Of a stretch of 64,000 nt of DNA, positions 7,328 to 50,342 are shown piece by piece (positions within the stretch are counted from its first letter, which is position 1; the number at the start of each line of letters is the position of its first letter). The DNA comes from an uncultured Opitutia bacterium (lineage in GTDB: Bacteria; Verrucomicrobiota; Verrucomicrobiia; Opitutales; CAJWYM01). The translations under genes were made by a program, and so were the position numbers. The DNA is taken from assembly GCA_913049555.1 (NCBI GenBank), contig CAJWYM010000001.1:52882-116881 (forward strand), written 5' to 3'. The notes under the pieces are model-generated. The model had not been told where the DNA came from. It worked only from the letters and a program-made list of their open reading frames with translations, and searched no databases.

Positions 7328-7334
7328 TTATAAT

Positions 7335-8279: not shown

Positions 8280-8318
8280 CGTTCTTTTAAAATCATCCCA
8301 AGCTTTTAGTAGAGGCGT

Positions 8319-9317: not shown

Positions 9318-9477
9318 AGAATAAATTTAAATTTATAATCCAACAAATACAGACCTATGAGTCAATTCTTTATGATTTAAAGTTGTGTGGATATGGTTCC
9401 TAATTCGAACTCTAGAATTGATTTTTAGCCCCTGTTAAAGGAGTGAATTCTTGAAATCACATTCGGTTTTTAAATTT

Positions 9478-11082: not shown

Positions 11083-11133
11083 TTTGACTAGGTTTGATTA
11101 CCTTAATAATCCTTTTTATTACTAGCAAACATT

Positions 11134-11586: not shown

Positions 11587-11655
11587 TTCACTAATTATTG
11601 AGGGGCTTTCAAACAGTTCTAATTTTTTTTGTTCTCAGGACTGTTGAAGTTTTTA

Positions 11656-12003
11656 TTAACCTCGATCTGTGAAATTCCAATTTAGATTGGATTCTTCATA
11701 GTAAGGAACCTCACGCTTTTCATTCTTAATGGGGGAACTGAAGCCTCTAAAAGTTTCGCGGATGCCATATAAATTCAATCGATTGAGTGAGGCACTTTCC
11801 GAATCCTGTTTGTTTACTGAAGGAACATTTTCGGAAGTATTGGGAAATGAAATCAATGTATTTTGTTTGCTAAGCTTCAGTGCTGCAGAGTCAATAAAAT
11901 CACCGAAACTATTAATATTGGAGGATCCGAATCTGTGGGTTAATAATGACATAAATAATTTTTTTTTAAGGTTTTTATAAGTTCTTGAATTATAAATCGG
12001 CAC
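11656..12003 (-). CDS. Hypothetical protein
   Basis: 115-aa ORF filling the gap between the acs terminator and gspG; true start may be a later Met; no family recognised. Confidence 0.45.
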   Translation of the reverse strand: MPIYNSRTYKNLKKKLFMSLLTHRFGSSNINSFGDFIDSAALKLSKQNTLISFPNTSENVPSVNKQDSESASLNRLNLYGIRETFRGFSSPIKNEKREVPYYEESNLNWNFTDRG

Positions 12004-12060
12004 GGATTTTAGAAACTTAAGTAAAAATTATTTATTTTTATTAATTTATAGATAGAAACC

Positions 12061-12090
12061 AAAAAAAGGCCCCATAATTAAATGGGGCCT
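12061..12090 (-). terminator. Rho-independent terminator of acs
   Basis: AGGCCCCAT-aattaa-ATGGGGCCT hairpin next to an A-run that reads as a U-tract on the minus strand, about 30 nt after the acs stop. Confidence 0.85.
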
Positions 12091-12118
12091 TGACCAAAAT
12101 TGGAGTAATGAAAATAAA

Positions 12119-28306: not shown

Positions 28307-29023
28307 TAGAATTTCTTCAACGGATCGTTAAGTTTTTAAAATCTCATCAATTACCAGTAACAACTAGCAAGAGTGTGTATTCTAAACTTAAATTCATTTG
28401 CTTGAATTGGGTAAAAAGCACGTTTTAATGGGTGTAATTTATTCTTATAGAATAATATAAAAAAAGCCAGTATTTTTTAGTCCTATTTTAAAATAGGGAA
28501 GTTCACTCCTTTTTTTAATATTTCCAAAGGACTCAGGTTCTCCATTCCCAATCTTTATATAAAACTTATAATTTTGAAGGTTTTCTTATCAGCAGTAGTG
28601 ATTTCTCACAATAAGTTTTTATAAAGTCTTTTTATTTTAAATGAATACAGCAGTCTTAGTGATCGATTCTGTCGACTTCATCATGACTAATTGGACTTTA
28701 GATTTTACCAAAACGACAGAACCCTGAATCCTCCAAAAGGATGCAATAAAAAATAAGTTTTGAGCAAAAGATATTGAAGCGAAAAGAGTGATTAAATCCT
28801 GAAATAGAACTTTTGGTTCCGTGAAGATTTTCATAAATCATTGCAGTCGAATCCGTGAAGCTTGAGGTCAAAGTTTTCATGAGGGATCTGGGTTTATCAA
28901 ATTGCATGCCATTTGAGCGTATAAAGTAAACCCCACGCTCTTTTAGTTTTTTAAGACTTAAATTTTAGTTTCTACTTTAGATTGCATTTACAATTTCTAA
29001 AATCATTTGTAGATTCTTTCCCC

Positions 29024-30013
29024 ATGAGATTTTATCTTGAATTCCTAGTCAATTGTTCTATTCCGTTATTGTTTTCTTTTACTGTTGTCTCAGTGTTTGG
29101 CGATTCACTTCTATTTAAAAATGGGGATCGGATTTCAGGATCTTTAATCAATGAAACTCGGACCGAATATGTTTTTAAGACTGAATATGGAACCCTTCGT
29201 GTTCCTATGGATCAAGTTGATCTGGAGAAAGCCCCCAAGATTCAGTCAAAGCCGATTTTAAACTTAGTAGAGGGGGATAAGACCTCTTCGAAACTGAGCC
29301 ATCTGGATCGGTTGAAAATCAGAAAAGCAAAAATAAGGCAAATATTTCCAAATTCTTGGAAGGGAAGAATTTCAAGTAGTGTAGAATTTTTAGAGAGCGA
29401 AAACAGTCGTTTCGGATTTCAGCAAAAATTATCTACTTATAAAAAAATAGAAGCTCAACGCTACAATTTAAACGCCTACTATGCCTATTCTAAAGTAAGC
29501 CAAAAAGATGGGGTCTCAATCAAAACTCGTGATGAACATGGGGCAAACGGGGGACATGTTTGGGATTTTGGAGAGGGCTGGTTTTCTAATACAAGAATCA
29601 GTTATTTGAGAGATGAGCAAAGAGATATTCAATTTCAAGTTCAACCCACATCCGCATTGGGTTATCGGGTTTTTGATGATTCTGATTTAGCCCTATCTTT
29701 TAAAATTGGACCCTCTTGGCGATTCATAGATGCCTCTCAATTGGATACAAACCAAGTAAATTTAATCAATATCGGTCAAAATCTGATTTATAAATTCAAT
29801 GGACAAGTAAAATTTATCCAAAGCGTAGACTATTTTCGAAGCCCTGAGGATTCATCGGTCTCCAATACAATTTTTCGAGCTACTTTGGCTTCCAATCTTA
29901 CGGATTTACTAGATACAAGACTTGGCTATGTCTATGATCACAATAATATTGTAGGTAGAGCGATGCAAAAAAAACAAGGTCGCCTAACCCTGTCCTTCGG
30001 AATTCCATTTTAA
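29024..30013 (+). CDS. DUF481/YdiY-like outer-membrane beta-barrel protein
   Basis: ATG at 29024 preferred; LKNGDRISG-type N-domain, alternating beta-strand pattern, C-terminal LSFGIPF. Confidence 0.75.
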   Translation: MRFYLEFLVNCSIPLLFSFTVVSVFGDSLLFKNGDRISGSLINETRTEYVFKTEYGTLRVPMDQVDLEKAPKIQSKPILNLVEGDKTSSKLSHLDRLKIRKAKIRQIFPNSWKGRISSSVEFLESENSRFGFQQKLSTYKKIEAQRYNLNAYYAYSKVSQKDGVSIKTRDEHGANGGHVWDFGEGWFSNTRISYLRDEQRDIQFQVQPTSALGYRVFDDSDLALSFKIGPSWRFIDASQLDTNQVNLINIGQNLIYKFNGQVKFIQSVDYFRSPEDSSVSNTIFRATLASNLTDLLDTRLGYVYDHNNIVGRAMQKKQGRLTLSFGIPF

Positions 30014-34353: not shown

Positions 34354-35835
34354 ATGCACTCCTTCTATTTTTTACTCTTTTTTACCTTATTATTTACTGC
34401 CGCTTTTTCGAAGGATAAGAATTTTTACTCTGAAAAAAAGAAGATGATTTCCTTCGATAAGAATGAATTGCTAAAAATGGAACTTCCCATTTTAGTTGAA
34501 AAGTACAAATCATGGGGTCCTCTCGTTCAGCAACAGGCCAAGAGTTTTCTTGAGAAGAAATACCATGAGCAAATTAGGATCCATCCTTCTCTGGCTAGAC
34601 AGATTGAAAAGAAGCACAAGGAGCTTGTAGCTATACAATCCAAAAATGAAGAGATCTTTAGTTTTATGCTTGGAGTCCAACAGCCTCATGCTACCAATCA
34701 GAAATGGGAAATTCATAAGGGAGTGCCCTCTCAATTAGCAGCTCATCAAATTTTAATGGAAATGGGATCTGATATTATAAAATTGGCTCCAGAAAACAGA
34801 CACTTGAAAAAGCAGGGCTTTGAAACTGCCAATTTAAATACCCTCACAGATCGTTTGAAACACCCATTGTATAAGCAAATATTGGATATGCCTTACCGGG
34901 TGGCTTTCTTTTGGGCGCATGGTTCTGACATCACTTTTGATAAAAAAATGAGTTTCGATCAAAAAAGAAAGCTTTATGATGAATTCTATGAACTCACCCA
35001 ATATCTTCTAAAAACATACAACAGATCCGGAAAAGTATTTATGGTTGGCAATTGGGAGGGAGATTGGTTGCTGACGAGTCAGGAAGGAGATTTGAACCAA
35101 GACGCAGATTTAGTGCGCATAGAAAACATGATTGACTGGTTCAATATACGCTCGAAAGCAATCGAACAGGCCAAAATAGAAACCCATTATGAGGATGTTC
35201 GCGTTCATTTGTACTGTGAGTTGAATCATGTATCCCTTGTAGCCAATAAAGGATATAAAAGAATTGTGAATAGCGTCCTCCCATACACTTATGTGGATTA
35301 CGTATCGATCTCTAGTTATGACATGCAGGGTATTGGAAATTGGAAATCAGATCCTACAGAATCCGCTTTGAGGGAATTTGCTTTGCCTATGTTTGACTTT
35401 GTAGAGGAACATTTGCCCCCTAGAGACATCCCAGGAAAAAGAGTATTTACAGGAGAGGTCGGCTTCACAATCCATCACATCAATCACCTATTCGATCTTC
35501 ATGGTTTGAAGGCTGAGCGAGAACAGGCGAGGCTTTCATTGATCAATGCGAAAGTAAATCTGGAGTGGGGAATGCCATTTTGGATTGTTTGGGCGCTGCA
35601 TAATAACGAATTGCAAAAAAACGGAGAATTTCGAGGTTGGGGAATTTATGATCAAGTTCATGATCGGAAAAGAGTTTTATTTCAAGAAATGGTTTCTTTT
35701 TATAAATGGGCAAAAGATTTTAAAGCCGGATTTGAAAAGAAAAACAAAAAGTCACTCACCCCAAATCTTTTTAGAGAACACGCAGTCCAACAACTGGATT
35801 TGCAAATCAGTAAATATCAAATTGAAAACAAATAG
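34354..35835 (+). CDS. Secreted protein with a putative glycoside-hydrolase-like TIM barrel (unclassified, GNWEGDW motif)
   Basis: Signal peptide; motifs FMVGNWEGDW, VDYVSISSYD, VFTGEVGF and WALHNNE in clan GH-A-like order; paralogous to the C-terminal half of 36579-39413. Confidence 0.6.
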   Translation: MHSFYFLLFFTLLFTAAFSKDKNFYSEKKKMISFDKNELLKMELPILVEKYKSWGPLVQQQAKSFLEKKYHEQIRIHPSLARQIEKKHKELVAIQSKNEEIFSFMLGVQQPHATNQKWEIHKGVPSQLAAHQILMEMGSDIIKLAPENRHLKKQGFETANLNTLTDRLKHPLYKQILDMPYRVAFFWAHGSDITFDKKMSFDQKRKLYDEFYELTQYLLKTYNRSGKVFMVGNWEGDWLLTSQEGDLNQDADLVRIENMIDWFNIRSKAIEQAKIETHYEDVRVHLYCELNHVSLVANKGYKRIVNSVLPYTYVDYVSISSYDMQGIGNWKSDPTESALREFALPMFDFVEEHLPPRDIPGKRVFTGEVGFTIHHINHLFDLHGLKAEREQARLSLINAKVNLEWGMPFWIVWALHNNELQKNGEFRGWGIYDQVHDRKRVLFQEMVSFYKWAKDFKAGFEKKNKKSLTPNLFREHAVQQLDLQISKYQIENK

Positions 35836-35846
35836 AGTCGATTCCA

Positions 35847-36575
35847 ATGAAAACCTTTTTATACTGCATCGCTTGCTTCATTTTCTCTTTTTATTCCAGT
35901 CTAAACGCTGAATCCCAAAATCCTGATCGCTATGTGTTCGGATCAAAAGTATTTTCGTACATTGTCTCTTCTGAACAACAAATTGAAGATCCATTTAAAG
36001 TAAGGATCGACTATAATATCCCTCCCAACCAGAAAGTTCAAAAGATTACGGTAGTGATCAAAAAAGCGGGTTCCATTTTGGGCAAAGTTTCATTTTCTGC
36101 TCAAGGATTTGGATCCAAGGATATCACGTTTGATAAGATCCAGGGAATGGATGATTTCAATTTGGGGGGTTATGTTGGAAAAGATTTTCAAAGCAGAAGT
36201 TATTATTTCAATCCATTCCCTTTTAACTTTGCACTGTTGAAAAGAAAACCTAAAGAGAATCCGAAAAATGAATTTGGTGGATTTTACAGTATCAAGCTTT
36301 CTCAACCACTTTCTTTTGAGAAAATGGATTTAATTGAGGTTCAAAATGAAAAATTAGAGAATGCGATTCCCTTGAGAATTTTTGTAAAAAATAGTTTAGG
36401 TTCTATGTTTGCCTCTTCAATAGCGACAATAAAAGAGGAGGGAAGATTGTTTTTTTATATGAAAATGCCTAAAAAATCTTCTCAATCTTACCATCTTGTC
36501 TCTTATTTAGGCACAGATTTCTCTACCAAAATGGATGGGGTGGCACCGATTGATTTGGAGTTGGTTGATATGTAA
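35847..36575 (+). CDS. Secreted beta-rich hypothetical protein with an internal duplication
   Basis: Signal peptide; two similar halves ending FNLGGYVGKDFQSR and YHLVSYLGTDFSTK. Confidence 0.6.
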   Translation: MKTFLYCIACFIFSFYSSLNAESQNPDRYVFGSKVFSYIVSSEQQIEDPFKVRIDYNIPPNQKVQKITVVIKKAGSILGKVSFSAQGFGSKDITFDKIQGMDDFNLGGYVGKDFQSRSYYFNPFPFNFALLKRKPKENPKNEFGGFYSIKLSQPLSFEKMDLIEVQNEKLENAIPLRIFVKNSLGSMFASSIATIKEEGRLFFYMKMPKKSSQSYHLVSYLGTDFSTKMDGVAPIDLELVDM

Positions 36576-36578
36576 AAC

Positions 36579-39413
36579 ATGAGTAAGCGATTAATCAAAT
36601 CTTTGAATTTCTTTTTTTTAGGATTTTTCTTGGCTTGTTCCGACTCGACAGAAGTTACCTCCCCTGAAAAAGAAACCACTTTAGAAGTTCAAAAAACTAC
36701 AGAGATATTACCGGTTTCAGAGGAAACTCCTGAATTAGAAGAAAACTTCTTTCTGGAGGCAAATGGAGCTTTCGAGCAAATACTCTCTGGTATTGGGATC
36801 TCTTCAGTAGAGTCTTTCAAATTTGCTTTTGCAAAGTTAGAGCTAACGCATCAAAAGCTTTTGATTGAGAAAGTATTCAATGCACAGGAGCGATATTCTA
36901 TTTTGGGGGATCCTGTAGAATCCGTTCTTAAAGAGCTCATTTTATGGGCAATTCATTCCATAGATACCTTCGATGTTTATGAGCACTTAGAATTTATATT
37001 GAGGCTTGAAAAATGCATGGAACTCCTCCCTCAAAACGAATCAGTGGGTGACTATTTTTTAGGTTGGTTGCCAGTATTGCATCAGGAAGATCAAAAAAAC
37101 ATATTGAATAGTTTTTTAGAAAAATATGCACAATCGATTCGATTGAAAAGCCCCAATGAGAAGATTTATTCCAAGCTTTTCGATAAAATTCCGCAATCCA
37201 TTGGATGGGAATTGGATCCACAAAGCCAAAAAGATAAAATTCAGGAGCTGTTTTTCATTATCAACCAAATGACCAATAAAAGAATCACTCAATTGGACTT
37301 AGATAATTTTGGTTTACGAGATAAGATATTAATCGGTCACGAAATTTATAAAAGGCATCAAATCTCAGTCAATCAGAATTTTAGCGACTCCTATTTTCTT
37401 CACCAAACCTACAAATATTTAAAACAAACGGATCCATTATTAAATAAAATATTGGATGATTATTCTTTCTCAAAATGGAACCATGATTGGCTAGAAAATT
37501 CTATCAGTGTCTTTTTAGAGACTCAAAAATTTGGGTATGATGAAAAATGCCTCTTTTTTTATGAAATAAGGATGCTGAGTCAGGATCCTTTTTTAGAGAA
37601 TTTTTTAATCAGAAAAATAGAAGAGAATTTACCACAACAAAATTCAAAGCTTTATGATTGGCTTCTAATTTACAATCATTTTTTAGACAAAAAAATAGTT
37701 GAGAAGTCATTAGAATCTATCCTCATAAAGCCCGCGCAATTATTTTCTAATGGGTTGAAAACCATGCAAATGAATACTTTGAGCCAAGACGCTCTCTCAC
37801 TCTTGACTAAACTGTATCATTTATCGCCTGATAAATATCGTGATTATTTAAATAAAAAGATAATCGAAAAATACAACGAGATTAAGAGGCATTCTACCCA
37901 CAGTGCGAATGATTTAAAGATTCTCTACCACTCCTTAAATTCTGTGGAGGAAACTACAATTCAAAAGTCCCCATCCATTCAATCCAAATCGAATTCATCC
38001 AAAGCATTGGATTCCTTGTATCAATACCTAGAAAATAAGAATAAAAATTCCCTAGGTGCAAAATTATTGGATAAATTCAAAGATGCCTCCGATTCTGATA
38101 AACGGGAAATCAAAAAAACGCTCAAAGATGCTTATTACAAAAAAGTAATAGACGATCCATTGGAGGCTAGAATCCTCAGAGATTTATATATGAAAATGGT
38201 AGAAATATACTCAGAGAATCCACCCATCTTGAGCTCTATTATTGGAATCCAACAACCCCATGCAGATCTCAGACAAGATCGAAAATATTTTGATTCTGTT
38301 CCCTCTCAACTAAAAGCAGTTCAAGATCAATTGAATCTTCAAGCCGATACAATGAAATTGGCTATGCATAAAAAACATTTGATGCGTCAAAATCTCAACA
38401 TTGAGGGATACGATTCATTGAAAGACCTTGCAAGGCACCCGCTTTACAAAGAGATCCTTGATCAAGACTACCGAGTTTTGTTTTTTTGGGCGCATGGTCT
38501 GAATGGAAAGATAAAATTTCGGAACGAGTTTAAAGATTCCCAAAAAGAAGAGCTCTACAATGAATTTTATGAATTCACTAAGCATTTGTTAGTTGAATAC
38601 AACCAATCTGGTAAAACCTTTATGATCGGGAACTGGGAGGGAGATTGGATGCTCGCTGAGATCGGGAATTTAAAAACAGATGCAAGCCCGGAGGCAATTC
38701 AAAACATGATCGATTGGTTCAATATAAGAGCCAAAGCCATTGCTGACGCTAAAGAAGAAATCAAACATTCCAATGTAAGGATTCATTTATATGCAGAACT
38801 GAATCATGTCAGCCTTGTTATGAGAGAAGGCTTGAGCCGAATCGTCAATTCAGTCCTCCCTCATATATTAGTCGATTATGTTTCGATCTCCAGCTATGAT
38901 ATGCAAGGCTTACTAAAAATGGCTCGCTGCGAAAATGTATCAGAAGTGAAGGCGCTTATTTTCCCTCAGCTAGATTATGTCGAATCCATGTTGCCCCCTG
39001 CAGATATTCAAGGAAAACGGGTGTTCATCGGTGAGATCGGGTATCCCATACATTCTATTATGAAACGCTTTAAGATAGACCGTCCCAAAGCAGAGATAAA
39101 ACAGGCTCAAATGGCATTTATGAATGCACAAGCCAATATAGAGTGGGGAGTGCTTTTTTGGCAATGGTGGGCTTTGTATGACAACGAGCAGATAGATGAG
39201 GAAGAACCGGACGCTTATGTTGGCTTTGGTTTGATCGATCAAGTCAGCGGTAAAGCTCGGTTGAATTATCACTACTTCAGTGAATACTATAAATGGTCTG
39301 AATCGTATCTTTCTGACAATAAGAATGTACAATCTGTAAAAGATTTCCAAAAAAAATCTGTCAAAGAGATTGAAAAATGGGTCAAGAAGTTGAAAAAAGA
39401 ATTCGATAATTAG
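36579..39413 (+). CDS. Large lipoprotein with a helical N-terminal region and a C-terminal GH-like TIM barrel
   Basis: Lipobox FLAC; from about 38232 it aligns with the 34354 protein (GIQQPHA, FFWAHG, GNWEGDW, ELNHVSLV, DYVSISSYDMQG, GEIGY). Confidence 0.65.
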   Translation: MSKRLIKSLNFFFLGFFLACSDSTEVTSPEKETTLEVQKTTEILPVSEETPELEENFFLEANGAFEQILSGIGISSVESFKFAFAKLELTHQKLLIEKVFNAQERYSILGDPVESVLKELILWAIHSIDTFDVYEHLEFILRLEKCMELLPQNESVGDYFLGWLPVLHQEDQKNILNSFLEKYAQSIRLKSPNEKIYSKLFDKIPQSIGWELDPQSQKDKIQELFFIINQMTNKRITQLDLDNFGLRDKILIGHEIYKRHQISVNQNFSDSYFLHQTYKYLKQTDPLLNKILDDYSFSKWNHDWLENSISVFLETQKFGYDEKCLFFYEIRMLSQDPFLENFLIRKIEENLPQQNSKLYDWLLIYNHFLDKKIVEKSLESILIKPAQLFSNGLKTMQMNTLSQDALSLLTKLYHLSPDKYRDYLNKKIIEKYNEIKRHSTHSANDLKILYHSLNSVEETTIQKSPSIQSKSNSSKALDSLYQYLENKNKNSLGAKLLDKFKDASDSDKREIKKTLKDAYYKKVIDDPLEARILRDLYMKMVEIYSENPPILSSIIGIQQPHADLRQDRKYFDSVPSQLKAVQDQLNLQADTMKLAMHKKHLMRQNLNIEGYDSLKDLARHPLYKEILDQDYRVLFFWAHGLNGKIKFRNEFKDSQKEELYNEFYEFTKHLLVEYNQSGKTFMIGNWEGDWMLAEIGNLKTDASPEAIQNMIDWFNIRAKAIADAKEEIKHSNVRIHLYAELNHVSLVMREGLSRIVNSVLPHILVDYVSISSYDMQGLLKMARCENVSEVKALIFPQLDYVESMLPPADIQGKRVFIGEIGYPIHSIMKRFKIDRPKAEIKQAQMAFMNAQANIEWGVLFWQWWALYDNEQIDEEEPDAYVGFGLIDQVSGKARLNYHYFSEYYKWSESYLSDNKNVQSVKDFQKKSVKEIEKWVKKLKKEFDN

Positions 39414-39937
39414 AGGATTTTACAATTTTTGATAAAAAAAATTTAAATTTAGGGATATTAAATAAAGACGATTGGATCCTTTGTTCATGCAGGATGGATC
39501 AAAACTTTTTTATAAAAACAAAATTGGGCTCTAAAATAACAGTGCTCTGAGCTCCAATCAAAAAGGAAGCAGGAGGAATGGGTGTTATGAATTTCTCGCT
39601 GAATGTTCCTAAGGGTTAAAATTCAGATTTGTAATTCTTTGAATTGCGGTACTCCTTGGAGGGTGCAATTCATTGAATTTTCAATCAATCTCAGAAGAAA
39701 TGAGTGCCAATAAAAAAATCATTTGATTTTTGTTAACTTTACAAGTCTTCAGAACGTAGCTCTATGTGTTCAGCTTAGAATTTCAAAATATATGTAATTT
39801 TAAGCTTACTCGATTCCAAATTTAAACTCAAACACCGATCCCTAAAACAGAGTCCAACAGCATATGCATTTTGATTTAAAGCTTAAAACCGATCTGTTTA
39901 ATCTACTTCCAATCTTCAACGTTTCTCAACGGATAAA

Positions 39938-42900
39938 ATGAAATTACTTGTAAATTTACATCTAATAATTGGAGTTTTGGCTCTGATAAACTTGTCGGCT
40001 ATGGAAAGTAAAGTTGTGATTCGGGAAAACAATTCTTTTCTGATGGCAATGGGAAAAGGATCCCGTTTAGAAATCCATGCTGCAGACAAAAAAAAAGCAA
40101 GCTGGTTGCAATTAGCAAATGGTTATACAGCAAGTCCCAATGACACCGAAATTACATTAGACAATGAAGGGAAAAAAACGCACTGGGAAATAGGAGATCA
40201 ATTTGCAATTGCTACCTCTTATTACCATGAGAGAAGAACGGAAGTGAGACGTATCCAGTCGATCGTAGATTCGGGAAGATTGACAAAAATCACATTTAAA
40301 AAACCATTAGATTACACGCATTACGGGGAGATTGAAAATTATCGTATGGTCAAAAAGGAGGGTGAAGAATTGACTTGGGATATTGACATGCGAGCTGAGG
40401 TTGGTTTGTTGACTCGAAACATTGTAATTCAGGGGCATCCTGACCGTCGAAAAGATGAATTCGGGGGTCACGTAATGGTTATGATGGGTGGGAAAATGCA
40501 TATTGCTGGAGCTGAACTCAAGTTTATGGGGCAAGATGGGTTTCTCGGTAGATATCCTTTGCATTGGCATCTTTCTGGGGACGTAAAGGGACAATATATT
40601 ACAAATAATTCCATCCATAATAGTTTTCATAAAGGAATCACGCTTCATGGTACTCAAAACGCATGGGTTGAGAATAATGTAGTTTTCGAAACGCAGGGCC
40701 ATGGCATTTTTCTTGAAGATGGCACTGAGGAAAACAATGTAATCAAAAAAAATCTAGTTTTTAACACCAAAAATGCTAAAACGCCTGTGATTGCATCGGA
40801 TAAATTTGCAATCTCTAGTTACTGGTCCAACAACCCGAACAACCATTTTATTGGCAACCATGCCGCTGGCTCGAGAGGCAGTGGATTTTGGATTGCTGGA
40901 AATAGGAAACCAATAGCAGGAGCGGAAAAGATGCCTCAATACAAAAGCTTAGTTCCTAGGCAAAGACCTTTTGGATTGTTTCAAGGAAACACTGCACACA
41001 GTAATTTAAAAACAAGTTCTGGGACTTTGGGAAGAGAGATGACCGGCATCGGATTGAATATAGGTCAAGAAATTCAAGAAGATAAGATTAAAAAACTGGA
41101 TCACGACAACTATGCAGAACTTCACCAACCCGTCCCTGGGCAAAGCAACGACATCTATAATTTATATGTATCTGATTTCACGTCTTACATGAATGAAGAC
41201 GTGGGTATTTTTGCTCGAACTTTTGGAGGGCACTTAAAAAATATAAAATTGGCTGACAATGGTTTGGCAATCATGACTACAGGAGGACAGCTTATTGAAG
41301 AGAGTGTTGTGATTGGACATAGTAAAAACAGCAATATTCACAAACGAAAATTCGAAACCATTCGAGAAAGTAGATATGGGCTAGGTCTTTACACCGACAG
41401 CGTGGTGGTTGACAAAACTTTGTATGCCAACTTTAAACCAGAGTGGACAAACAGCGAAGGTCAGAAGATTCGCGATTCTATTCTGACTCAAAGGACGGGT
41501 GCCAATAATTCTACTCTTCATGTTATGCAAGATATCCAGATTAAAAACACCCATCCTAAAAATTATTTTATGTCTAATGGTAAGAATGGAAATCGTAGGA
41601 GTGATGAATTGTCAGTAGCCTCTGTTGGTTTTGTGGACGGTGGAGGTGCTTTTACTGGAATTCCCGGTGCCATGGTAACCGCTCGTTTGAGACCAGCGGA
41701 AGAGGGAATCGAAGATCAATCTTCTAGAAGTGATGTTGAGCTTCTAACCAATGGTTTTCAAAGAGCCCCATACATAGATTTGAAGGATTCTACATTACAG
41801 CGAGAGGAAGAACTCGATGCGCATATCAACAAACATCAAATCGCAGGACATTTTAAACTGCAGAAGGGGCATTCTGGTTCTTTTAAAACCATCACTCGAT
41901 CGGATGGGGAAATGATCAGAACAGATCTGGTCGGAAATGGAACCACTTCAGATCAGTTGGTTGTATTTGCCTACAAAGATTCCAGTTATGGTTTAGAAAA
42001 TAAGGTCCGCTATACATTTGAATGGGACAATCAAATCGAAAATGATCTAGAATTCATCATAAGGGATTTTGCAAAAGGACAACAAGTGTACTTCATTCTC
42101 AAGAAGGTCCCTCGATCTACAACAATTCAAGGATCTGATCCTGCAAGTAGTCTTGACGAATTGATCGAAAGGTCCCCTCTTAAGGGAAGTTGCCATTTTT
42201 TTAAAGGGTCGGACCTGCATCTATTGTTGTCAGCAACGGATGAATCCTATCATCCCCAACTGAATGACTTAGCTACAATCAATCATCGAGTCTTTTGGGA
42301 TGGAGTGCGAATTCGACCAAATGGAACAGGGAGAGACAAATTGGAGGGTGACCATCAAATCAGTCATAAGATGTTTCGGCCCTTCACAAGAGAATTGGAG
42401 AAAGATTTTGGAGATCAGGTAAGTTGGAGGAAGAACCCAATCAAATTTGTACAATCCAAGATCTCTGAGAAAGAAATGCTGGAGCAGGTTGAGAAGTTAG
42501 ACCCAGCTCATTCTGGTTCAACTTCTGAAACCATATCAAAAACACAATCATTTCCTCTTTGGTCGGATCCAAATTCATGGGCAGGGAAAATACCTGCCTC
42601 GGATTCTATTGTAATTATACGCAATGGTGAAAAAGTTACGCTAGATAAGAATACTAGGGTTCAGGGAATTATTATTGAGGGGTCGGGGTCGGTTCTTAAT
42701 ATAATGGACCAAAAAGGCGCTCGTTTGAAACTAACATCTGACTTTGTTTTGGTCTTAAACGGAGGGCTTTTTCAAGCTGGAACTGAAACCAATCTCTTAG
42801 ACACAGATTTTACCTTAGAATTATCTGGAGAGGACCCAGAATTCATCTTACCAGTAACAGATTTACTCAAAGGTCAGACCAACCACAAAATTTCTTACAT

Positions 42901-42940
42901 CGGTTCAGAAAAAAAGCCAATTTTACAATCAAAAATTTAG
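39938..42940 (+). CDS. Secreted CEMIP/TMEM2/fibrocystin-like beta-helix protein with G8 domain
   Basis: RAEVGLLTRNIVIQG, FGGHVM, MGQ...GRYPLHWH, ITLHGT, GHGIFLEDGTE; G8-type WSDPNSW...GTE...LSG segment at the C-terminus. Confidence 0.85.
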   Translation: MKLLVNLHLIIGVLALINLSAMESKVVIRENNSFLMAMGKGSRLEIHAADKKKASWLQLANGYTASPNDTEITLDNEGKKTHWEIGDQFAIATSYYHERRTEVRRIQSIVDSGRLTKITFKKPLDYTHYGEIENYRMVKKEGEELTWDIDMRAEVGLLTRNIVIQGHPDRRKDEFGGHVMVMMGGKMHIAGAELKFMGQDGFLGRYPLHWHLSGDVKGQYITNNSIHNSFHKGITLHGTQNAWVENNVVFETQGHGIFLEDGTEENNVIKKNLVFNTKNAKTPVIASDKFAISSYWSNNPNNHFIGNHAAGSRGSGFWIAGNRKPIAGAEKMPQYKSLVPRQRPFGLFQGNTAHSNLKTSSGTLGREMTGIGLNIGQEIQEDKIKKLDHDNYAELHQPVPGQSNDIYNLYVSDFTSYMNEDVGIFARTFGGHLKNIKLADNGLAIMTTGGQLIEESVVIGHSKNSNIHKRKFETIRESRYGLGLYTDSVVVDKTLYANFKPEWTNSEGQKIRDSILTQRTGANNSTLHVMQDIQIKNTHPKNYFMSNGKNGNRRSDELSVASVGFVDGGGAFTGIPGAMVTARLRPAEEGIEDQSSRSDVELLTNGFQRAPYIDLKDSTLQREEELDAHINKHQIAGHFKLQKGHSGSFKTITRSDGEMIRTDLVGNGTTSDQLVVFAYKDSSYGLENKVRYTFEWDNQIENDLEFIIRDFAKGQQVYFILKKVPRSTTIQGSDPASSLDELIERSPLKGSCHFFKGSDLHLLLSATDESYHPQLNDLATINHRVFWDGVRIRPNGTGRDKLEGDHQISHKMFRPFTRELEKDFGDQVSWRKNPIKFVQSKISEKEMLEQVEKLDPAHSGSTSETISKTQSFPLWSDPNSWAGKIPASDSIVIIRNGEKVTLDKNTRVQGIIIEGSGSVLNIMDQKGARLKLTSDFVLVLNGGLFQAGTETNLLDTDFTLELSGEDPEFILPVTDLLKGQTNHKISYIGSEKKPILQSKI

Positions 42941-43217
42941 GGATGGATCTAAAATTCTGATCCGCCTGCTTTTCTATTTTTACTTAGAAACCTCAAAATT
43001 CCTAGTGAACCTTTTTCATCCATTCGAATCTAAGATTCTGAGAGATGGGTATGAAAAGAAGTGGGGTCTTTTTAGTTCCTGGAAGGTGTAGAAACACTTT
43101 AAAAGAAATCTTTCATATAAATTCATAAAAGCTGTACCTATTACAAATAGATGGATATGTAATGATTTATCCAACTTTTTATCGATAAATATGAATTAAA
43201 ATTTGATAAATTATTTC

Positions 43218-43243: not shown

Positions 43244-44020
43244 ATGAGAGTTTCAGATCATATAGTTTCTAAAAGAAGACGAGATTTAGCGATCTTAATA
43301 AGACAAAATCGCTACATGCCGATTTCTGAGATATGCAAGCATTTTGCCATCTCTGAAGCGACTGCAAGACGTGACTTGAGAGCGTTGGAAGAGGGTAGTG
43401 AAATATTGCGCACCTTTGGCGGTGCTCTTGGTGATTTTAATGAAGATTTCGAAACTTTCTCGGAGAGAAAAGAGCAATCGTCCACAGCAAAACAGTGGAT
43501 CGCTAAAAAGGCCGTCCAGCAAATTCATCCAGGAATGGTTTGTTTTCTTGATGCTGGTAGCACACTTTATGCGATTGCAGAGGAATTATCCAAGAGTGGC
43601 AAAAAAGATATCAAGGTGATGACAAATAATTTAGCTGTTGCTGAGTTACTTTCTCCAGTCAAGGGCATCTATGTATCTCTTACAGGAGGCAAACTGGCCT
43701 CCAAGCAAGCGGTCCTTCTGGGTGAAGTTGCAGAGAGAACCTTGGCTCAATGCACATTCGATCTTTCATTTATGAGTGCTAAAAGTGCCAATGAGTCAGG
43801 CATTTGGAACAATCAAGAAGACGTTGTGTTGCTGCAAAAGCTTTTAATCGATCGAAGCGCAAAGCCTATATTTTGTTTGGACAAAAGTAAAATTGGGAGA
43901 GATGACAATCGATTTGTGGCTAATTGGCATAAGATATACGCCTTTCTTACAGATGCTCCTAAAACTTTACTGTTAGAGAACAACATCAAATTGCAGCCTT
44001 CTAAGCATTGGATGGTCTAG
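43244..44020 (+). CDS. DeoR/GlpR-family transcriptional regulator
   Basis: ISEATARRDLRALE...RTFGGA HTH; FLDAGST and MTNNL in the sugar-phosphate sensor domain. Confidence 0.93.
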   Translation: MRVSDHIVSKRRRDLAILIRQNRYMPISEICKHFAISEATARRDLRALEEGSEILRTFGGALGDFNEDFETFSERKEQSSTAKQWIAKKAVQQIHPGMVCFLDAGSTLYAIAEELSKSGKKDIKVMTNNLAVAELLSPVKGIYVSLTGGKLASKQAVLLGEVAERTLAQCTFDLSFMSAKSANESGIWNNQEDVVLLQKLLIDRSAKPIFCLDKSKIGRDDNRFVANWHKIYAFLTDAPKTLLLENNIKLQPSKHWMV

Positions 44021-44036
44021 GGGAGCGTTGATTATT

Positions 44037-44798
44037 ATGAGTGAAAAATTAAAGAAGCAACTGATACAACTGTCCCATGAGTTGGGTCGCGAGGAAAGGG
44101 CGTTGGCAATTCTTGGAGAGGGCAATACTTCTGTCAAATTGGAGAATGGTAATTTCCTGGTCAAAGCAAGCGGCAGTTGTTTGGGCACCTTGTCTGATGA
44201 TGGTATTACAGAATGCAATGTTTCAAATATTTTGGATCTTTTTAACCAGTCGGAGCTTTCTGATTTAGAGGTAGACAAAGCTCTCTTAGATTCTCGGGTA
44301 GTTGCTGAATCTAAAAAACCATCTGTGGAGGCGACTTTTCATGGATATTTGTTGTCCTTACCGGGTGTCAAATTTGTGGGTCATACCCATCCCATCCATG
44401 TAAACAAGTTGTTATGCAGTGGCAACGGAAGAGACTTTGCAGAGCGTAGAATCTTTCCGGATCAAATTGTTTGTTGCGGAGCGGAGTCGGTATTTGTTCC
44501 TTACGTAGATCCAGGATTAGAATTAGCAAAAGCGATAAAAGAGCAAGTAGAGTTTTTTATCGGACGCACTTCCCGAGCTCCCGTTACGATTTTAATAGAA
44601 AATCATGGGCTTATTTGTATCGGCAAAACATGGCAAGGAGTTTTAGCCGCTTCTCTAATGGCCAATAAATCTGCCGAAATACTTGCAGGCGCTCTAGCTT
44701 GTGGAAATGGATCTGCTAACTATCTTGCGAATGATCAAGTGGATCGGATTGCAGGAAGACCAGATGAGCACTACAGGCAAAAAGTGCTCAATCTTTAA
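44037..44798 (+). CDS. Class II aldolase/adducin-family protein (candidate fuculose-1-phosphate aldolase)
   Basis: GEGNTS, VKASG, KPSVEATFH, HTHP and NHG zinc-binding motifs. Confidence 0.85.
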   Translation: MSEKLKKQLIQLSHELGREERALAILGEGNTSVKLENGNFLVKASGSCLGTLSDDGITECNVSNILDLFNQSELSDLEVDKALLDSRVVAESKKPSVEATFHGYLLSLPGVKFVGHTHPIHVNKLLCSGNGRDFAERRIFPDQIVCCGAESVFVPYVDPGLELAKAIKEQVEFFIGRTSRAPVTILIENHGLICIGKTWQGVLAASLMANKSAEILAGALACGNGSANYLANDQVDRIAGRPDEHYRQKVLNL

Positions 44799-44842
44799 TT
44801 CAAATATTTATCTTTAATTCAAAAAACTAAATCGAATAAAAA

Positions 44843-47032
44843 ATGAGTACAGTAATGGGCTACAAACATGTAAATTATCTTTGGGACGATGAGATTGCAG
44901 GCAATATGAATGCAGTCGAAAGACTCGTATACCGATCCAATATTTTAGGGTCTGATCAAAGGATCACCAATACAGGTGGAGGAAATACTTCGTCCGTCGT
45001 TTTAGAAAAAGATCCCATTACCGGCGAAGAAGTCGATGTATTGTGGGTAAAGGGTTCTGGAGGAGATCTTAGAACTTCAACAAAGGACAATTTTTCCTCC
45101 TTGTATCAAGGAAAACTAATTTCTCTTCAAGGGGTTTATGCAGGATTAGAAAACACAGGACCCAAGACAGAAGCGGAAGATGATATGGTTGCTATGTACA
45201 AACAATGCACCTTCAATCTAAATCCCAGGGCATCCTCTATTGATACGCCCCTGCATTCATTCATCCCTTTCAAACACGTGGATCATATGCATCCAAATGC
45301 GGTTATTGCCATTGCTGCCAGTAAAGATCAAGAAGCTTTGACCAAAGAAATATACGGCGATGAGGTGATTTGGACTCCATGGTTAAGACCCGGTTTTGAA
45401 CTGGGTTTACAATTACAAAAACTTTGTCAAGATTATCCAAATGCCAAGGGAGCCATTATGGGTCAACATGGTTTGATTAATTGGGCGAATGATGACAAAG
45501 AGTGCTATGAGCTTACATTAACTTTGATTGAAAAAGCTGCTCAATTCATAGAAGATAGGGATCAGGCTGAAAAGACATTTGGGGGTCAAAAATATGCATC
45601 TTTGCCTGAGGCAGAAAGATTGGATAATTTTGCAGAGATTTTACCATGGCTTCGAGGTAAAGTGAGTTCAGAGAAACGTTTGATTGGAACGATTCAGCAC
45701 GATGATAATATTTTGAGATATGTGAACTCAAACGAAGCCGGTCGCTTGTCCGATCTTGGCACTTCTTGTCCGGATCATTTCTTAAGAACTAAAATCAAAC
45801 CTTTGTACGTTGATTGGAACCCAGTCACTGAGGACCTGCAAAATTTGCAGGAAAAGTTGGATGCAGGGATTGTCCAATATGAAAAAGACTACGCCGCTTA
45901 CTACGAAGCTTGTAAGCACAGCAATTCTCCAGCCATTAGACAATCCAGTCCAAGTATTGTCTTGATTCCTGGTATGGGAATGATCGCTTGGGGAAAGAAC
46001 AAGAGTGAATCTAGAGTGACGGCAGAATTTTACAATTGTGCAGTAGAGGTAATGCGTGGGGCTGAAGCAGTCAGTGAGTATATTTCCCTTCCTCAACAAG
46101 AAGCATTTGACATTGAATATTGGTTGTTGGAGGAAGCAAAACTTCAACGTATGCCGGCAGAAAAAGAATTGGATCGTCAGATTGTCGTTGTCGTTGGAGC
46201 AGGTAGTGGCATTGGTCAAGCAGTGTGCAATCGGATTGTGGGAGAAGGAGCGCATGTTGTCTGTGTGGATCTCAATTTGAAGGCTGCCTCCGCTTCTGCT
46301 CAAACCATTATTGATAATTACGGAGAGGGTATTGGAGTCGCTGGAACCGGAATTTCTAATTGCGGTCCTGCACTTCCAGTTGAAGGAGATGTGACGAACC
46401 GTGACAGTGTTGAGGCCATGTACAAACAAGCCATTCTTGCCTATGGTGGGATTGATGGGGTCGTTGTCACTGCTGGGATTGTTTTTGCACAAGATGCCAA
46501 GGGATTGATCCCTGACTCAAAGTGGGACTTTACTTTCGATTTGAATGTTAGAGGAAGTTATTTTGTTGCTAGTGAGGCTCGTCCTATTTGGGAAAAGCAG
46601 GGACTTTCTGGAAGCCTAGTTTTAACCACAAGTGTGAATGCAGTGGTTCCTAAAAAAGGGTCGGTCGCTTATGACATTAGCAAAAGTGCGATCAATCATT
46701 TGACTCGGGAGTTGGCAGTCGAGTTGGCTCCTTTAGTCCGGGTGAATGCTGTAGCTCCTGCATCGGTTGTCAAAGGAAGTGCCTTATTCCCAATCGATCG
46801 AGTGAAAAAATCTTTGGACAAATATGATTTATCCTATGAGGAGACGGAGTCAGAAGAAGTGTTGACCAGTCGTTTGGCGCAGTTCTATGCGGATAGAACC
46901 TTGACGAAGGTAATTATGACACCCGAAGATCAAGCGGAAGCCTTCTTTTTGTTTCTCTGTGGACGTCTTAGTAAGACCACCGGTCAAGTAATCAATGTGG
47001 ACGGTGGGTTGGCAGAAGCTTTTCTACGTTAA
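44843..47032 (+). CDS. Bifunctional rhamnulose/fuculose-1-phosphate aldolase and short-chain dehydrogenase (RhaEW type)
   Basis: ITNTGGGNTS, KGSGGDL, ASSIDTPLH, DHMHP, GTSCPDHFLRTK, IEYWLLEEAKL, then SDR motifs GAGSGIG and YDISK. Confidence 0.93.
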   Translation: MSTVMGYKHVNYLWDDEIAGNMNAVERLVYRSNILGSDQRITNTGGGNTSSVVLEKDPITGEEVDVLWVKGSGGDLRTSTKDNFSSLYQGKLISLQGVYAGLENTGPKTEAEDDMVAMYKQCTFNLNPRASSIDTPLHSFIPFKHVDHMHPNAVIAIAASKDQEALTKEIYGDEVIWTPWLRPGFELGLQLQKLCQDYPNAKGAIMGQHGLINWANDDKECYELTLTLIEKAAQFIEDRDQAEKTFGGQKYASLPEAERLDNFAEILPWLRGKVSSEKRLIGTIQHDDNILRYVNSNEAGRLSDLGTSCPDHFLRTKIKPLYVDWNPVTEDLQNLQEKLDAGIVQYEKDYAAYYEACKHSNSPAIRQSSPSIVLIPGMGMIAWGKNKSESRVTAEFYNCAVEVMRGAEAVSEYISLPQQEAFDIEYWLLEEAKLQRMPAEKELDRQIVVVVGAGSGIGQAVCNRIVGEGAHVVCVDLNLKAASASAQTIIDNYGEGIGVAGTGISNCGPALPVEGDVTNRDSVEAMYKQAILAYGGIDGVVVTAGIVFAQDAKGLIPDSKWDFTFDLNVRGSYFVASEARPIWEKQGLSGSLVLTTSVNAVVPKKGSVAYDISKSAINHLTRELAVELAPLVRVNAVAPASVVKGSALFPIDRVKKSLDKYDLSYEETESEEVLTSRLAQFYADRTLTKVIMTPEDQAEAFFLFLCGRLSKTTGQVINVDGGLAEAFLR

Positions 47033-47048
47033 TCAAAAATTGGAATCG

Positions 47049-48542
47049 ATGATTCAAAAAAAGGTATACTTAGCAGTAGACTTAGGCGCTGAAAGTGGAA
47101 GAGTTCTTGCGGGAGAGTTTGACGGCTCCCGTTTAGAGCTTGTCCCGGTGAATACATTTCCTAATGGGCCCATCAATCTTGCTGGGTCCATGCATTGGAA
47201 TATTACGGGTTTATACAAAGGAATCTTAGAGGGTTTGGCATTGGCTCAATCTAAGTATGGGGATGCTCTGGTTTCAATAGGTGTGGATAGCTGGGGTGTT
47301 GATTATGGGTTTTTGGATAAAAAGGGACATTTGTTAGGAGTTCCTTACCACTACCGAGATTCAAGAACTGATGGGATGCTTTCAGAAGTTGAAAAAATAA
47401 TTTCTGCTCAAGAAATGTATCATTCAACTGGAATTCAATCCCTATTCTTCAATACATTATACCAATTGGTAGCTGAATTGAATGAAGATTCCGTTTTATT
47501 GAAAAATGCGGATTCTTTATTGTTCATTCCGGATTTGATCAATTTCTGGTTGACCGGGAAAAGAAAAACAGAGATCACGATCGCAAGCACCGGTCAGTTA
47601 CTGAATCAGGAGACTCGTGATTGGGACAAGGGCTTATTAGATAAACTCAGGATCCCAACTGCTATTTTTGAATCTCTAGTTAGTCCCGGTGATTTGATTG
47701 GTTTTGTAACTGGGGGCGCTCGACGGGAAATAAAGTGCGGGAACGATTTAAAAGTCTTTGCAATCGGTTCCCATGACACAGCTTCTGCAATTGCAGGTAT
47801 TCCTGTAGTCGATTCAGAGGATTTTGCATACCTGAGCTCTGGAACTTGGTCTTTAATGGGAGTCGAACTGAAAGAAGCGATTTTGAGCGAGGAAAGCAAT
47901 CGGTTGGGTTTTACGAATGAACTCGGGATTGATCAAACCGTTAGGTATCTAAAAAACATCAGTGGGCTTTGGATTGTTCAAGAATGTCGAAGGTATTGGG
48001 ACTCTCATGGAGACATTTATGATTACAATCAATTGACTTCGATGGCTTCTAATGGAAACGCTTTTGAGGCCATTATCGATGTGGACGATCCAATCTTTGC
48101 AACGATGGGTGATATGCCCAATAAAATTGCCGATTACTGCACGAAAACAGGGCAAAAAGTTCCTGTGTCCAAGAATGAAACAATCCGGATCGCACTTGAG
48201 GGTTTGGCCCTAAAATATCGAGAAGTTTTAGAAAACTTGCGATCTATGACAGGTAAAAAGTTAGAAACCCTGTATATAGTGGGTGGAGGTACTCAAAATA
48301 AATTATTAAACCAGATGGCAGCAAATGCAACTTCTTGTAAAGTAATTGCAGGACCAGTCCAAGCTACCTCTGTCGGTAATATTATTACTCAAATGATGGG
48401 CAATGGTGAAATTCACTCCTTGAATGAAGCGCGTCAGTTGATCCAAGATTCCCTCGAACCTGTAGAATATTTCCCTGAAGACTTGGCAAATTGGGAAGAT
48501 GCCTATAAAAGATACTCCTCATTAAAAAATTCTAATAACTAA
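47049..48542 (+). CDS. rhaB: FGGY sugar kinase (rhamnulokinase/fuculokinase type)
   Basis: ATG at 47049 preferred; AVDLGAESGR, GVDSWGVDY, YRDSRT, SHDTASA, SSGTWSLMG, GFTNE, LKNISGLW. Confidence 0.88.
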   Translation: MIQKKVYLAVDLGAESGRVLAGEFDGSRLELVPVNTFPNGPINLAGSMHWNITGLYKGILEGLALAQSKYGDALVSIGVDSWGVDYGFLDKKGHLLGVPYHYRDSRTDGMLSEVEKIISAQEMYHSTGIQSLFFNTLYQLVAELNEDSVLLKNADSLLFIPDLINFWLTGKRKTEITIASTGQLLNQETRDWDKGLLDKLRIPTAIFESLVSPGDLIGFVTGGARREIKCGNDLKVFAIGSHDTASAIAGIPVVDSEDFAYLSSGTWSLMGVELKEAILSEESNRLGFTNELGIDQTVRYLKNISGLWIVQECRRYWDSHGDIYDYNQLTSMASNGNAFEAIIDVDDPIFATMGDMPNKIADYCTKTGQKVPVSKNETIRIALEGLALKYREVLENLRSMTGKKLETLYIVGGGTQNKLLNQMAANATSCKVIAGPVQATSVGNIITQMMGNGEIHSLNEARQLIQDSLEPVEYFPEDLANWEDAYKRYSSLKNSNN

Positions 48543-48551
48543 GCTCAATTT

Positions 48552-50342
48552 ATGAACCCTTTATCTGTCTTTAAAAATATGCCCAAAGTTGGGATACGCC
48601 CCACAATTGATGGTCGACTCGGGGGGGTGCGTGAATCTCTCGAGGAGCAAACGATGAACCAAGCAAAGAGTGTAGCTCTTTTGATACAAAAAAACTTGAG
48701 ATACCCCAATGGAGAGCCTGTCGAATGTGTTTTAGCAGACACTTGCATTGGGGGCGTAGCTGAGGCATCCGCAACCACCGAAAAATTTCAAAAAGAAGGC
48801 GTGGGTCTTTCTCTAACCATCACCCCTTGTTGGTGCTATGGTTCTGAAACGATGGACATGGATCCGATTATCCCGAAGGCAGTCTGGGGGTTTAATGGGA
48901 CCGAGCGTCCTGGAGCCGTATATTTAGCCGCCGTTTCTGCAGCCCATTCCCAAAAAGGGTTTCCGGCATTTAAGATTTACGGCAAAGACGTTCAGGAATC
49001 TTCGGACAACTCGATTCCAAAAGATGTGCAAGAAAAAGTATTTCGTTTTGTCCGAGCAGGTTTGGCAGCAGCAATTATGAGAGGAAAGTCCTATCTTTCC
49101 ATGGGTGGAACCTCTATGGGAATTGTTGGCTCTACCGTGGATCCCAACTTTTTCGAAGCATTTTTGGGAATGCGGGTAGAATTCGTAGATATGACAGAGT
49201 TTACTCGTCGTTTGGAGAATGAGATTTTTGATAAAGCTGAATACAAAAAAGCACTCGATTATGTAAAAGAAAACTTTGTTGAAGGGCAGGACTTCAATGC
49301 TCAGGATTATCAAAGAGACCGAGCTACTTTAGACGAGGAGTGGGAAACTTCAGTGAAGATGGCATTGATCGCTCGAGATTTAATGGTTGGCAACCCAAAA
49401 CTGACAGATGCGGGCTATGGAGAAGAAGCAATGGGCCACAATGCAATTGCAGCAGGATTTCAAGGGCAACGACAGTGGACGGACCACATGCCAAACGGAG
49501 ACTTTATGGAAGCCGTCTTGAACACCTCCTGGGATTGGAATGGAAAGCGGGCTCCTTATTTATTGGCGACTGAAAATGATGCTTTGAATGGGGTTTCTAT
49601 GCTCTTTGGTAACTTATTGACTAATTCTGCTCAAATTTTTGCAGATTTAAGGACCTATTGGAGTCCAGATGCAGTTGAGCGGGTAACAGGTAAAAAGTTA
49701 AATGGGCATGCAAAGGAGGGTATTTTACATCTAATCAACTCAGGACCAGCTGCTTTGGACGGAACTGGAGAGCAAACGGAGGAGGGTCATCCAGCGATGA
49801 AACCTTTCTGGGAGATTTCAGATCAAGAAGTCAAGGCATGCAACCAAGCTACAACTTGGCACCCATCGGTTACCGAGTATTTCCCCGGGGGTGGCATGTC
49901 TACTCGCTACAAAACAAAAGGGGGGATGCCGGTAACGATGACCCGTCTCAATTTAGTAAAAGGGCTGGGGCCCGCTATTCAACTTGCAGAAGGGTACACA
50001 GTCGAGTTGGATGAAGATGTGCACGATGCATTGGATCAAAGAACCAATCCAACCTGGCCTACTACATGGTTTGCTCCCAAGTTAACAGGTAAAGGAGCGT
50101 TTCGTTCCGTTTATTCGGTTATGGATGCCTGGGGGTCTAACCACTGCGTTATGACTTATGGTCATGTAGGTGCAGATTTCTTAGCGCTTGCAGCGACTTT
50201 GCGCATTCCAGTTTATATGCACAACGTGGAAGAGGAAGATATTTTTCGTCCAAGCGCCTGGACCGCTTTTGGAACTGCAAATATGGAAAGTGCAGATTTT
50301 AGAGCGTGTGAAAATTTTGGTCCGATATATACCAATTACTGA
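48552..50342 (+). CDS. fucI: L-fucose isomerase
   Basis: [62 protein letters not shown]. Confidence 0.97.

Follow-up and report, generated by a model that had tools for sequence, protein, structure and literature searches.

Probable natural circular permutation of the beta-helix core in a marine bacterial CEMIP/TMEM2-like protein

The window analysed here is a stretch of 64,000 nucleotides (nt) from an uncultured Opitutia bacterium (GenBank assembly GCA_913049555.1, contig CAJWYM010000001.1, positions 52,882–116,881). Its forward strand carries an open reading frame (ORF) at 39938–42940 that encodes 1000 amino acids (aa), and the product of this ORF is referred to as the window protein; P-numbers designate relatives of this protein, and L-numbers designate genome loci. 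The window protein is probably an exported CEMIP/TMEM2-like right-handed beta-helix protein, the core of which is a genuine, inherited circular permutant closed in cis. A preliminary description, in which the coordinates of the ORF were exact (with V26 at nt 40013 and W875 at nt 42560), had proposed a circularly permuted G8 domain. The existence of a natural circular permutation is supported by the swapped homology, the family-wide order and the predicted structure described below. The permuted unit is the whole core composed of G8, beta-helix and domain X, which is cut between turns 2 and 3 of the helix.

Swapped segments and predicted fold of the window protein

The Pfam family CEMIP_beta-hel (PF24606) matches aa 175–359 of the window protein over profile positions 2–210 of 212 (5e-57, 193.5 bits against a cut-off of 27.3). 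Pfam G8 (PF10162) has its sole match at aa 881–967, covering profile positions 2–86 of 124 (6.5e-11, 42.6 bits against a cut-off of 22.9), in agreement with the preliminary placement of the missing first part of G8 at the C-terminus. The NCBIfam scan returned only a generic parallel beta-helix repeat. Among solved chains searched with phmmer, the TMEM2 ectodomain (8c6i_A) is the only relative by sequence (3.8e-42). G8 is not intact N-terminal of the beta-helix in the window protein: its start is located at aa 869–977 and its end at aa 26–59. In addition, no GG/ILEI-type (lectin-like GG) family occurs among the Pfam matches at E ≤ 10, and only a small sandwich is present at aa 56–157.

The exchange of segments is evident from the comparison with the canonical relative P0007. 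BLASTP aligns residues 28–801 of the window protein with residues 140–854 of P0007 (33% identity, E 4e-109), and residues 868–977 with P0007 residues 30–131 (37% identity, E 6e-14). The two segments are swapped and non-overlapping, and together they span the canonical core, with just 8 P0007 residues between them. The Pfam G8 match on P0007 extends over aa 37–171 (profile 2–123). Since residues 28–59 of the window protein are aligned with P0007 residues 140–171, inside this match, they correspond by transitivity to the end of G8. In the phmmer alignment to 8c6i_A, aa 890–968 fall on chain positions 49–128 and aa 130–446 on positions 391–727. The window protein is colinear from end to end with the permuted relative P0002 (26–997 with 11–902, 2e-147). 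A scan of the last 141 aa alone gives the same partial Pfam G8 match; the C-terminal piece is therefore an incomplete G8.

The TMEM2 crystal structure report (PMC10206443) describes G8 as part of a continuous beta-helix, with no separate domain. G8 thus forms the first turns of the helix, and the break separates turn 2 from turn 3 in a single long solenoid. The order swap proposed in the preliminary description is real, but what is permuted is the whole core and not a stand-alone domain. In the canonical order, the chain passes through turns 1–2 (the first two thirds of G8), turn 3 (the G8 end) with the inserted sandwich, the helix body and the beta-rich C-terminal region. The chain of the window protein would begin at turn 3, build the helix body and then the C-terminal region, and run back along the helix via a disordered tether of about 70 residues. 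It would end with turns 1–2, stacked on turn 3 in parallel register as a cap over the hydrophobic core of the same molecule.

The AlphaFold2 monomer, predicted from an alignment of 35 permuted proteins, has a mean predicted local distance difference test score (pLDDT) of 81.2 and a predicted template modelling score (pTM) of 0.86. pLDDT is 93–97 at aa 30–100 and 91–97 at aa 870–980, and lies below 50 at aa 1–22, 797–841 and 991–1000; the N-terminal strands at 27–29, 34–38 and 43–48 are predicted with pLDDT of 93–97. Foldseek ranks 8c6i_A first for the predicted model (E 1.4e-33, TMq 0.54). VIA-align superposes model residues 27–855 on 8c6i_A residues 214–1380 (Z 25.7, root mean square deviation 3.3 Å, 675 residues aligned). 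Model residue 27 pairs with 8c6i_A residue 214; no sequential partner is found for the first turns of TMEM2, and a permutant should behave in this way. Lower-ranked structural matches include alginate epimerases, polysaccharide lyases and phage tailspikes (Z 15–17.6).

Docking was assessed with two separate fragments, aa 23–480 and aa 860–1000. The score is 0.93 in all three runs, with 0.00 for the best of three controls, and the mark is one reached by 58 of 80 solved complexes and by 2 of 110 mismatched pairs. Between runs, at least 97% of the contacts coincide, and the partner pLDDT is at least 86. In the complex model, the C-terminal piece stacks rung-on-rung on aa 25–49 and 161–167. Strands 34–38, 43–48 and 162–166 sit one rung below strands 936–940, 944–947 and 957–962, and the contact pairs 35:937, 37:939, 45:945, 47:947 and 162–164:958–960 show the same one-rung offset. 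Residues 860–865 also touch the body. The docking and the predicted register of turns 1–2 on turn 3 suggest that the two pieces are complementary as in the canonical fold; they are not evidence of cis closure. Because the continuous TMEM2 helix has already been solved, the docking result may reflect likeness and is no independent proof.

The features of the window protein are listed below by window position, with the basis of each assignment.

39938–40000 (+), aa 1–21: putative Sec signal peptide MKLLVNLHLIIGVLALINLSA; hydropathy, AlphaFold2 pLDDT <50 at aa 1–22, cleavage site placed by eye
40001 (+): alternative start M22; public gene call of P0001
40013–40114 (+), aa 26–59: last part of G8, predicted first strands of helix turn 3 and new N-terminus of the permuted core; BLASTP to P0007, pLDDT, docking
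40103–40408 (+), aa 56–157: small beta-sandwich inserted in turn 3; AlphaFold2 strands, counterpart in TMEM2 (PMC10206443)
40421–41347 (+), aa 162–470: right-handed parallel beta-helix body; PF24606 (nt 40460–41014), phmmer to 8c6i_A, conserved GRYPLHWH motif
41375–42325 (+), aa 480–796: beta-rich C-terminal region, domain-X-like; colinear with P0007 to residue 854, VIA-align, pLDDT mostly 70–94
42326–42541 (+), aa 797–868: predicted flexible tether back to the helix start, ending in the conserved STS.T motif (aa 861–865); pLDDT <50 at aa 797–841
42542–42868 (+), aa 869–977: displaced first part of G8 (WSD...NGGLFQAGTE...FTLELSGEDP), predicted helix turns 1–2; Pfam (nt 42578–42838), BLASTP, pLDDT 91–97, docking
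42869–42940 (+), aa 978–1000: short tail and stop codon; pLDDT drops to 36–73

All 35 aligned permuted proteins retain H209 and H211 of the helix body. The tail after the start-of-G8 piece varies from 0 to 1013 aa in the relatives, and extra domains are located there (RTX repeats, CarboxypepD_reg, CHRD, Ig-like).

Distribution and origin of the permuted order

We located the three pieces of the window protein by jackhmmer in 169 relatives, which together with the window protein make 170 sequences. The permuted order is found in 40 of the 170. Two of these are tandem forms (P0024 and P0043), and the others are the window protein, the 99%-identical P0001 and 36 further single-module clusters. 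The remaining 130 comprise 115 canonical sequences, five tandem canonical sequences and ten that lack one piece and are mostly fragments. The 39 permuted sequences apart from P0001 all start with Met; in 29 of them, the end-of-G8 piece begins at residue 32 or earlier, and in 10 it is preceded by an N-terminal extension. The Pfam G8 match ends at profile position 86–90 of 124 in all seven permuted proteins scanned (the window protein, P0002, P0003, P0006, P0029, P0004 and P0048). The profile reaches 123–124 in canonical P0007 (2–123) and P0011 (6–123), as it does in tandem P0043 for the complete second module; in canonical P0009, the match is limited to profile 10–98.

The same order is present in species-representative genomes. 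Their 80 loci include 30 permuted (31 ORFs), 42 canonical, one truncated canonical and one tandem locus, together with five that are cut short and one that is split across frames. The permuted loci belong mostly to marine Rhodobacterales. Their sources are Tateyamaria, the isolate Jannaschia sp. Os4, Roseibium, Pelagimonas, Roseobacter, Marinibacterium, other Rhodobacteraceae or Pseudomonadota metagenome-assembled genomes (MAGs) and one Acidimicrobiales MAG. A six-frame scan of the 30 permuted loci found no start-of-G8 piece able to serve the ORF beyond the C-terminal one within it; the single extra piece lies in L040, in a second gene on the opposite strand. The genome of the window itself (95% complete) holds one G8 match only, that is, no other G8 start piece. 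In the Acidimicrobiales MAG (L038), the helix part (2–2407) and the start-of-G8 piece (2095–3318) lie in overlapping frames, representing either a frameshift or a split permuted gene.

The permuted order is a natural trait common to a group of marine bacterial proteins, and it has apparently not been described before. In the library searched, no paper joins the G8 domain with circular permutation, and a search on G8, polysaccharide and bacteria returned nothing relevant. The combination of beta-helix and circular permutation led only to the case of the CdrA jelly-roll domain, which is unrelated.

In the main tree, based on 797 columns and a mixture model, the window protein is located within an all-permuted clade of 14 rows (Shimodaira–Hasegawa-like approximate likelihood ratio test support 97). 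Of the 37 permuted rows, 36 fall in one clade of 47 rows (support 90), which also holds 6 canonical and 5 incomplete rows. The remaining permuted row, P0042, is placed among canonical rows. The tree requires three order switches under the mixture model and four under LG+G4. A strict single origin is rejected by the approximately unbiased (AU) test under LG+G4, a test named after the tree had been seen (log-likelihood difference 345.6, p-AU 7.6e-6). The start-of-G8 piece of P0042 is nearest to the permuted clade (67% to P0046), and this resemblance makes recombination or misplacement of P0042 possible. In a first tree (170 modules, 330 columns, quick LG+G4 run), the window protein had a long branch and a tandem canonical module as its neighbour (support 94, unstarred); this tree was replaced by the longer mixture-model alignment.

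The permuted order most likely arose, and can flip back, by way of a tandem duplication that then loses its outer ends. Tandem copies of one order carry the other order in their middle, whichever order is duplicated. Canonical tandem modules are present in five proteins and in L068. Two tandem forms containing the permuted order, P0043 and P0024, may be duplication intermediates. P0043 (2207 aa) has a first module that starts with Met at turn 3 and a complete second module, and the two modules are mutual nearest relatives. P0024 (1591 aa) has no Pfam G8 match, and only a partial start-of-G8 piece precedes its second module. In the Roseibium locus L012, two permuted paralogues (5905–9855 and 9859–13581) are arranged head to tail, 3 nt apart, and their fusion could regenerate the canonical order.

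Closure of the helix and alternative explanations

The stretch linking the C-terminal region with the start-of-G8 piece has 81 residues in the window protein. Across all 35 aligned permuted proteins, its length is 48 residues at minimum, 66 in the median and 192 at maximum. The tether is poorly conserved, save for the STS.T motif, which precedes the WSD motif by about 15 residues. Tethers of such lengths are sufficient to span the helix, which makes closure within one chain feasible and kinetically favoured. Cis closure is the best reading and, in our judgement, quite probably the correct one. Fold-back in cis is also the better supported of the two modes of completion offered in the preliminary description, given the confident AlphaFold2 monomer and a tether of at least 48 residues in every aligned relative.

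Closure could also take place in trans, with turns 1–2 of one subunit capping turn 3 of another in domain-swapped dimers, rings or head-to-tail chains. We regard this arrangement as unlikely. No positive evidence for it was obtained, the intramolecular partner is always at the higher effective concentration in a dilute secreted protein, and the AlphaFold2 monomer is confident across its ordered parts (pTM 0.86). What speaks for trans closure is the long tether (48–192 residues in relatives), predicted to be disordered where pLDDT lies below 50 at aa 797–841, together with the confident docking of both pieces as separate chains, which makes intermolecular complementation sterically conceivable. 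Alternatively, the permutation might have no function, with a helix that simply starts at turn 3 and a C-terminal G8 piece that is the relic of a decayed second tandem module, undocked or in another role. Relatives with tandem modules do exist (P0020, P0117, P0118, P0128, P0161 and L068), and P0043 has a first module that begins at turn 3 and lacks a detectable start piece, with a complete second module behind it. However, all 35 aligned sequences share S876, V908, G915, D935, Q946 and G948 in the C-terminal piece, and conservation is 90% or higher at many more positions. Moreover, no complete permuted protein examined lacks the start-of-G8 piece, its end falls at one and the same profile position throughout, and the piece is predicted to dock in exact helical register. 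Since a decaying relic would not be retained in this way, that explanation appears highly improbable.

The unusual order might finally be an artefact of assembly or gene calling, from a chimeric contig or from a canonical gene with its 5' part wrongly joined to the 3' end. In favour of this, the draft genome consists of 102 contigs, and in the public run X1 the Logan contigs break at about 39997, close to the gene start, where strain variants occur. Nevertheless, a 10,639-nt contig of X1 covers 39998–43200 colinearly with 2 mismatches and spans the gene without joints. The same end-to-end order is found in P0001, which is 99% identical but distinct (11 member sequences, 2 contigs), and it recurs in 36 further clusters and in 30 species genomes from many projects. 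In-frame stops precede the first strand by 3–36 codons in many loci. Since X1 is possibly the sample from which the genome came, the case against misassembly is made more strongly by the independent homologues. Altogether 13 DNA runs from seawater or marine metagenomes contain at least half of the sampled words; run X2 contributed just one 32-nt piece, loose at its ends, X4 contributed nothing, and neither is counted as evidence. An artefact is thereby effectively refuted, leaving it a negligible likelihood. The preliminary description had named a complete C-terminal G8 and a scrambled assembly as outcomes that would speak against a permutation, and the tests instead returned a partial G8, a colinear contig and a conserved order.

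Several side observations concern the same reads. The X1 contigs contain two allelic versions of the upstream intergenic region 39599–39824, with 7 differences each in two short contigs, and they break at 39997, beside the alternative start M22; both features point to strain heterogeneity. In the metatranscriptomic library X14, four contigs of 99+% identity lie on the gene (40013–40532 and 42321–42682), one of them across the boundary between tether and G8. They suggest expression of the gene and are no proof of transcription.

A number of points weigh against an exported, functional permutant closed in cis. The long flexible tether permits cis and trans closure alike, and the docking within the full-length chain is deduced from pLDDT, pTM and the two-fragment prediction, not from monomer contacts. 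At the N-terminus, where the preliminary description expected the end of the Pfam G8 model, a scan of the 60 residues after M22 alone matched no family at E ≤ 10, so the assignment of this piece as the end of G8 depends on the P0007 alignment. A search of 40 other genomes of the same order gave no close homologue and one weak match, a result that is not evidence of absence; with so few relatives in the order, the gene appears patchily distributed. The hydropathy of the N-terminus (12-residue Kyte-Doolittle maximum 2.5) agrees with the putative signal peptide of the preliminary description. Yet the public gene call for the near-identical P0001 begins at M22 and yields 979 aa, which makes the true start codon, and hence the signal peptide, uncertain. 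As to the role proposed below, PMC10206443 reports no detectable hyaluronidase activity of the TMEM2 ectodomain in vitro. With the sole solved relative inactive in vitro, an enzymatic function of the window protein is an assumption from fold and neighbourhood, and no catalytic residues can be assigned in it.

Export, gene neighbourhood and comparison with known systems

Canonical and permuted proteins differ in features related to export. By a crude hydropathy count, signal-peptide-like N-termini are present in 62 of 111 canonical and 3 of 37 permuted proteins, and, in an equally crude count, at least four RTX-like motifs occur in 15 of 37 permuted and 3 of 112 canonical proteins; both counts are made on related sequences that are not independent. 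The window protein itself has a hydrophobic N-terminus and contains no RTX-like motif. It is conceivable, if rather doubtful, that the tethered helix-start piece serves as a device. In one form, it would cap neighbouring molecules into head-to-tail chains or domain-swapped assemblies on marine polysaccharide. In the other, it would delay cytoplasmic folding until synthesis ends, keeping these mostly signal-peptide-less and often RTX-bearing proteins competent for type I secretion, with the order flips co-selected with the export route.

The gene is located in a sugar-use locus. Upstream lie an ATP-binding cassette (ABC) sugar transporter, two ORFs at 34354–35835 (493 aa, +) and 35847–36575 (242 aa, +) that match no Pfam or NCBIfam family, and then a 944-aa lipoprotein. 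This putative lipoprotein (36579–39413, +), directly upstream of the gene, has no Pfam, NCBIfam or Protein Data Bank (PDB) sequence match. Its residues ~550–944 show a likeness to unclassified TIM-barrel hydrolases resembling glycoside hydrolase family 5 (protein atlas, feature scores 0.88–0.93, template modelling scores 0.3–0.4), which is a lead only. A further ORF of 343 aa at 28982–30013 (+) matches a Leptospira-type N-terminal domain only weakly and below threshold (NF047433, 27.9 bits, cut-off 43).

The downstream block (43244–50342, +) encodes deoxyhexose catabolism of mixed pathways. It contains L-fucose isomerase (1057.7 bits against a cut-off of 775), a bifunctional rhamnulose-1-phosphate aldolase/dehydrogenase of the short-chain dehydrogenase/reductase type (1055.8 bits against 634), and a rhamnulokinase-like kinase, which at 460.7 bits stays below its cut-off of 527.95. 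A DeoR regulator and a stand-alone class II aldolase-like protein complete the block. Judged by its fold and this neighbourhood, the window protein most likely acts outside the cell, where it would cleave or bind a marine polysaccharide that contains fucose or rhamnose.

In transferring the first two rungs of a linear stack to the opposite chain end, nature has carried out an unusual topological experiment. The canonical and permuted proteins, a pair at 33% identity, offer a test of how solenoids nucleate, cap and fold. If the apparent repeated switching of order is real, the visible tandem forms would make it a clear natural case of permutation by duplication. Annotators should not mistake a 'partial C-terminal G8' of these proteins for a fragment. 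Moreover, these CEMIP/TMEM2 relatives are small, bacterial and probably soluble, and their sugar-use loci hint at substrates at a time when catalysis by CEMIP and TMEM2 is still disputed.

The window protein shares the CEMIP_beta-hel and G8 signatures with the TMEM2/CEMIP2 ectodomain (PDB 8C6I; Niu et al. 2023, PMC10206443) and with CEMIP/KIAA1199. It further resembles TMEM2 in the small sandwich inserted at turn 3, the GRYP.H.H motif and the beta-rich region after the helix. According to the TMEM2 report (PMC10206443), the small sandwich and a lectin-like domain are inserted there after three helix turns. The TMEM2 helix starts N-terminally with G8 intact, whereas turns 1–2 of the window protein follow the C-terminal region on a tether. 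In addition, the window protein has no detected lectin-like (GG) domain and no transmembrane anchor, and it is bacterial and encoded in a sugar-use locus. The activity of TMEM2 is itself disputed.

Other counterparts are the canonical bacterial G8/CEMIP_beta-hel proteins P0007 and P0011, of the kind named 'G8 domain-containing protein' in NCBI MAG annotations. Their core is homologous to that of the window protein over about 770 residues at 33% identity, their accessory repertoire is similar (RTX repeats in P0011), and they belong to the same wider clade. Unlike in the window protein, their G8 is whole and N-terminal.

Circular permutation is known to arise by duplication and truncation, and beta-propellers are closed by a 'velcro' of N- and C-terminal strands. 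Like these velcro and duplication permutants, the window protein has termini relocated within a conserved fold, tandem intermediates among its relatives and a repeat stack closed from both chain ends. Unlike the closed or globular permutants, its fold is an open-ended linear solenoid, and for this reason the moved piece must be carried over the full length of the helix by a tether of at least 48 residues.

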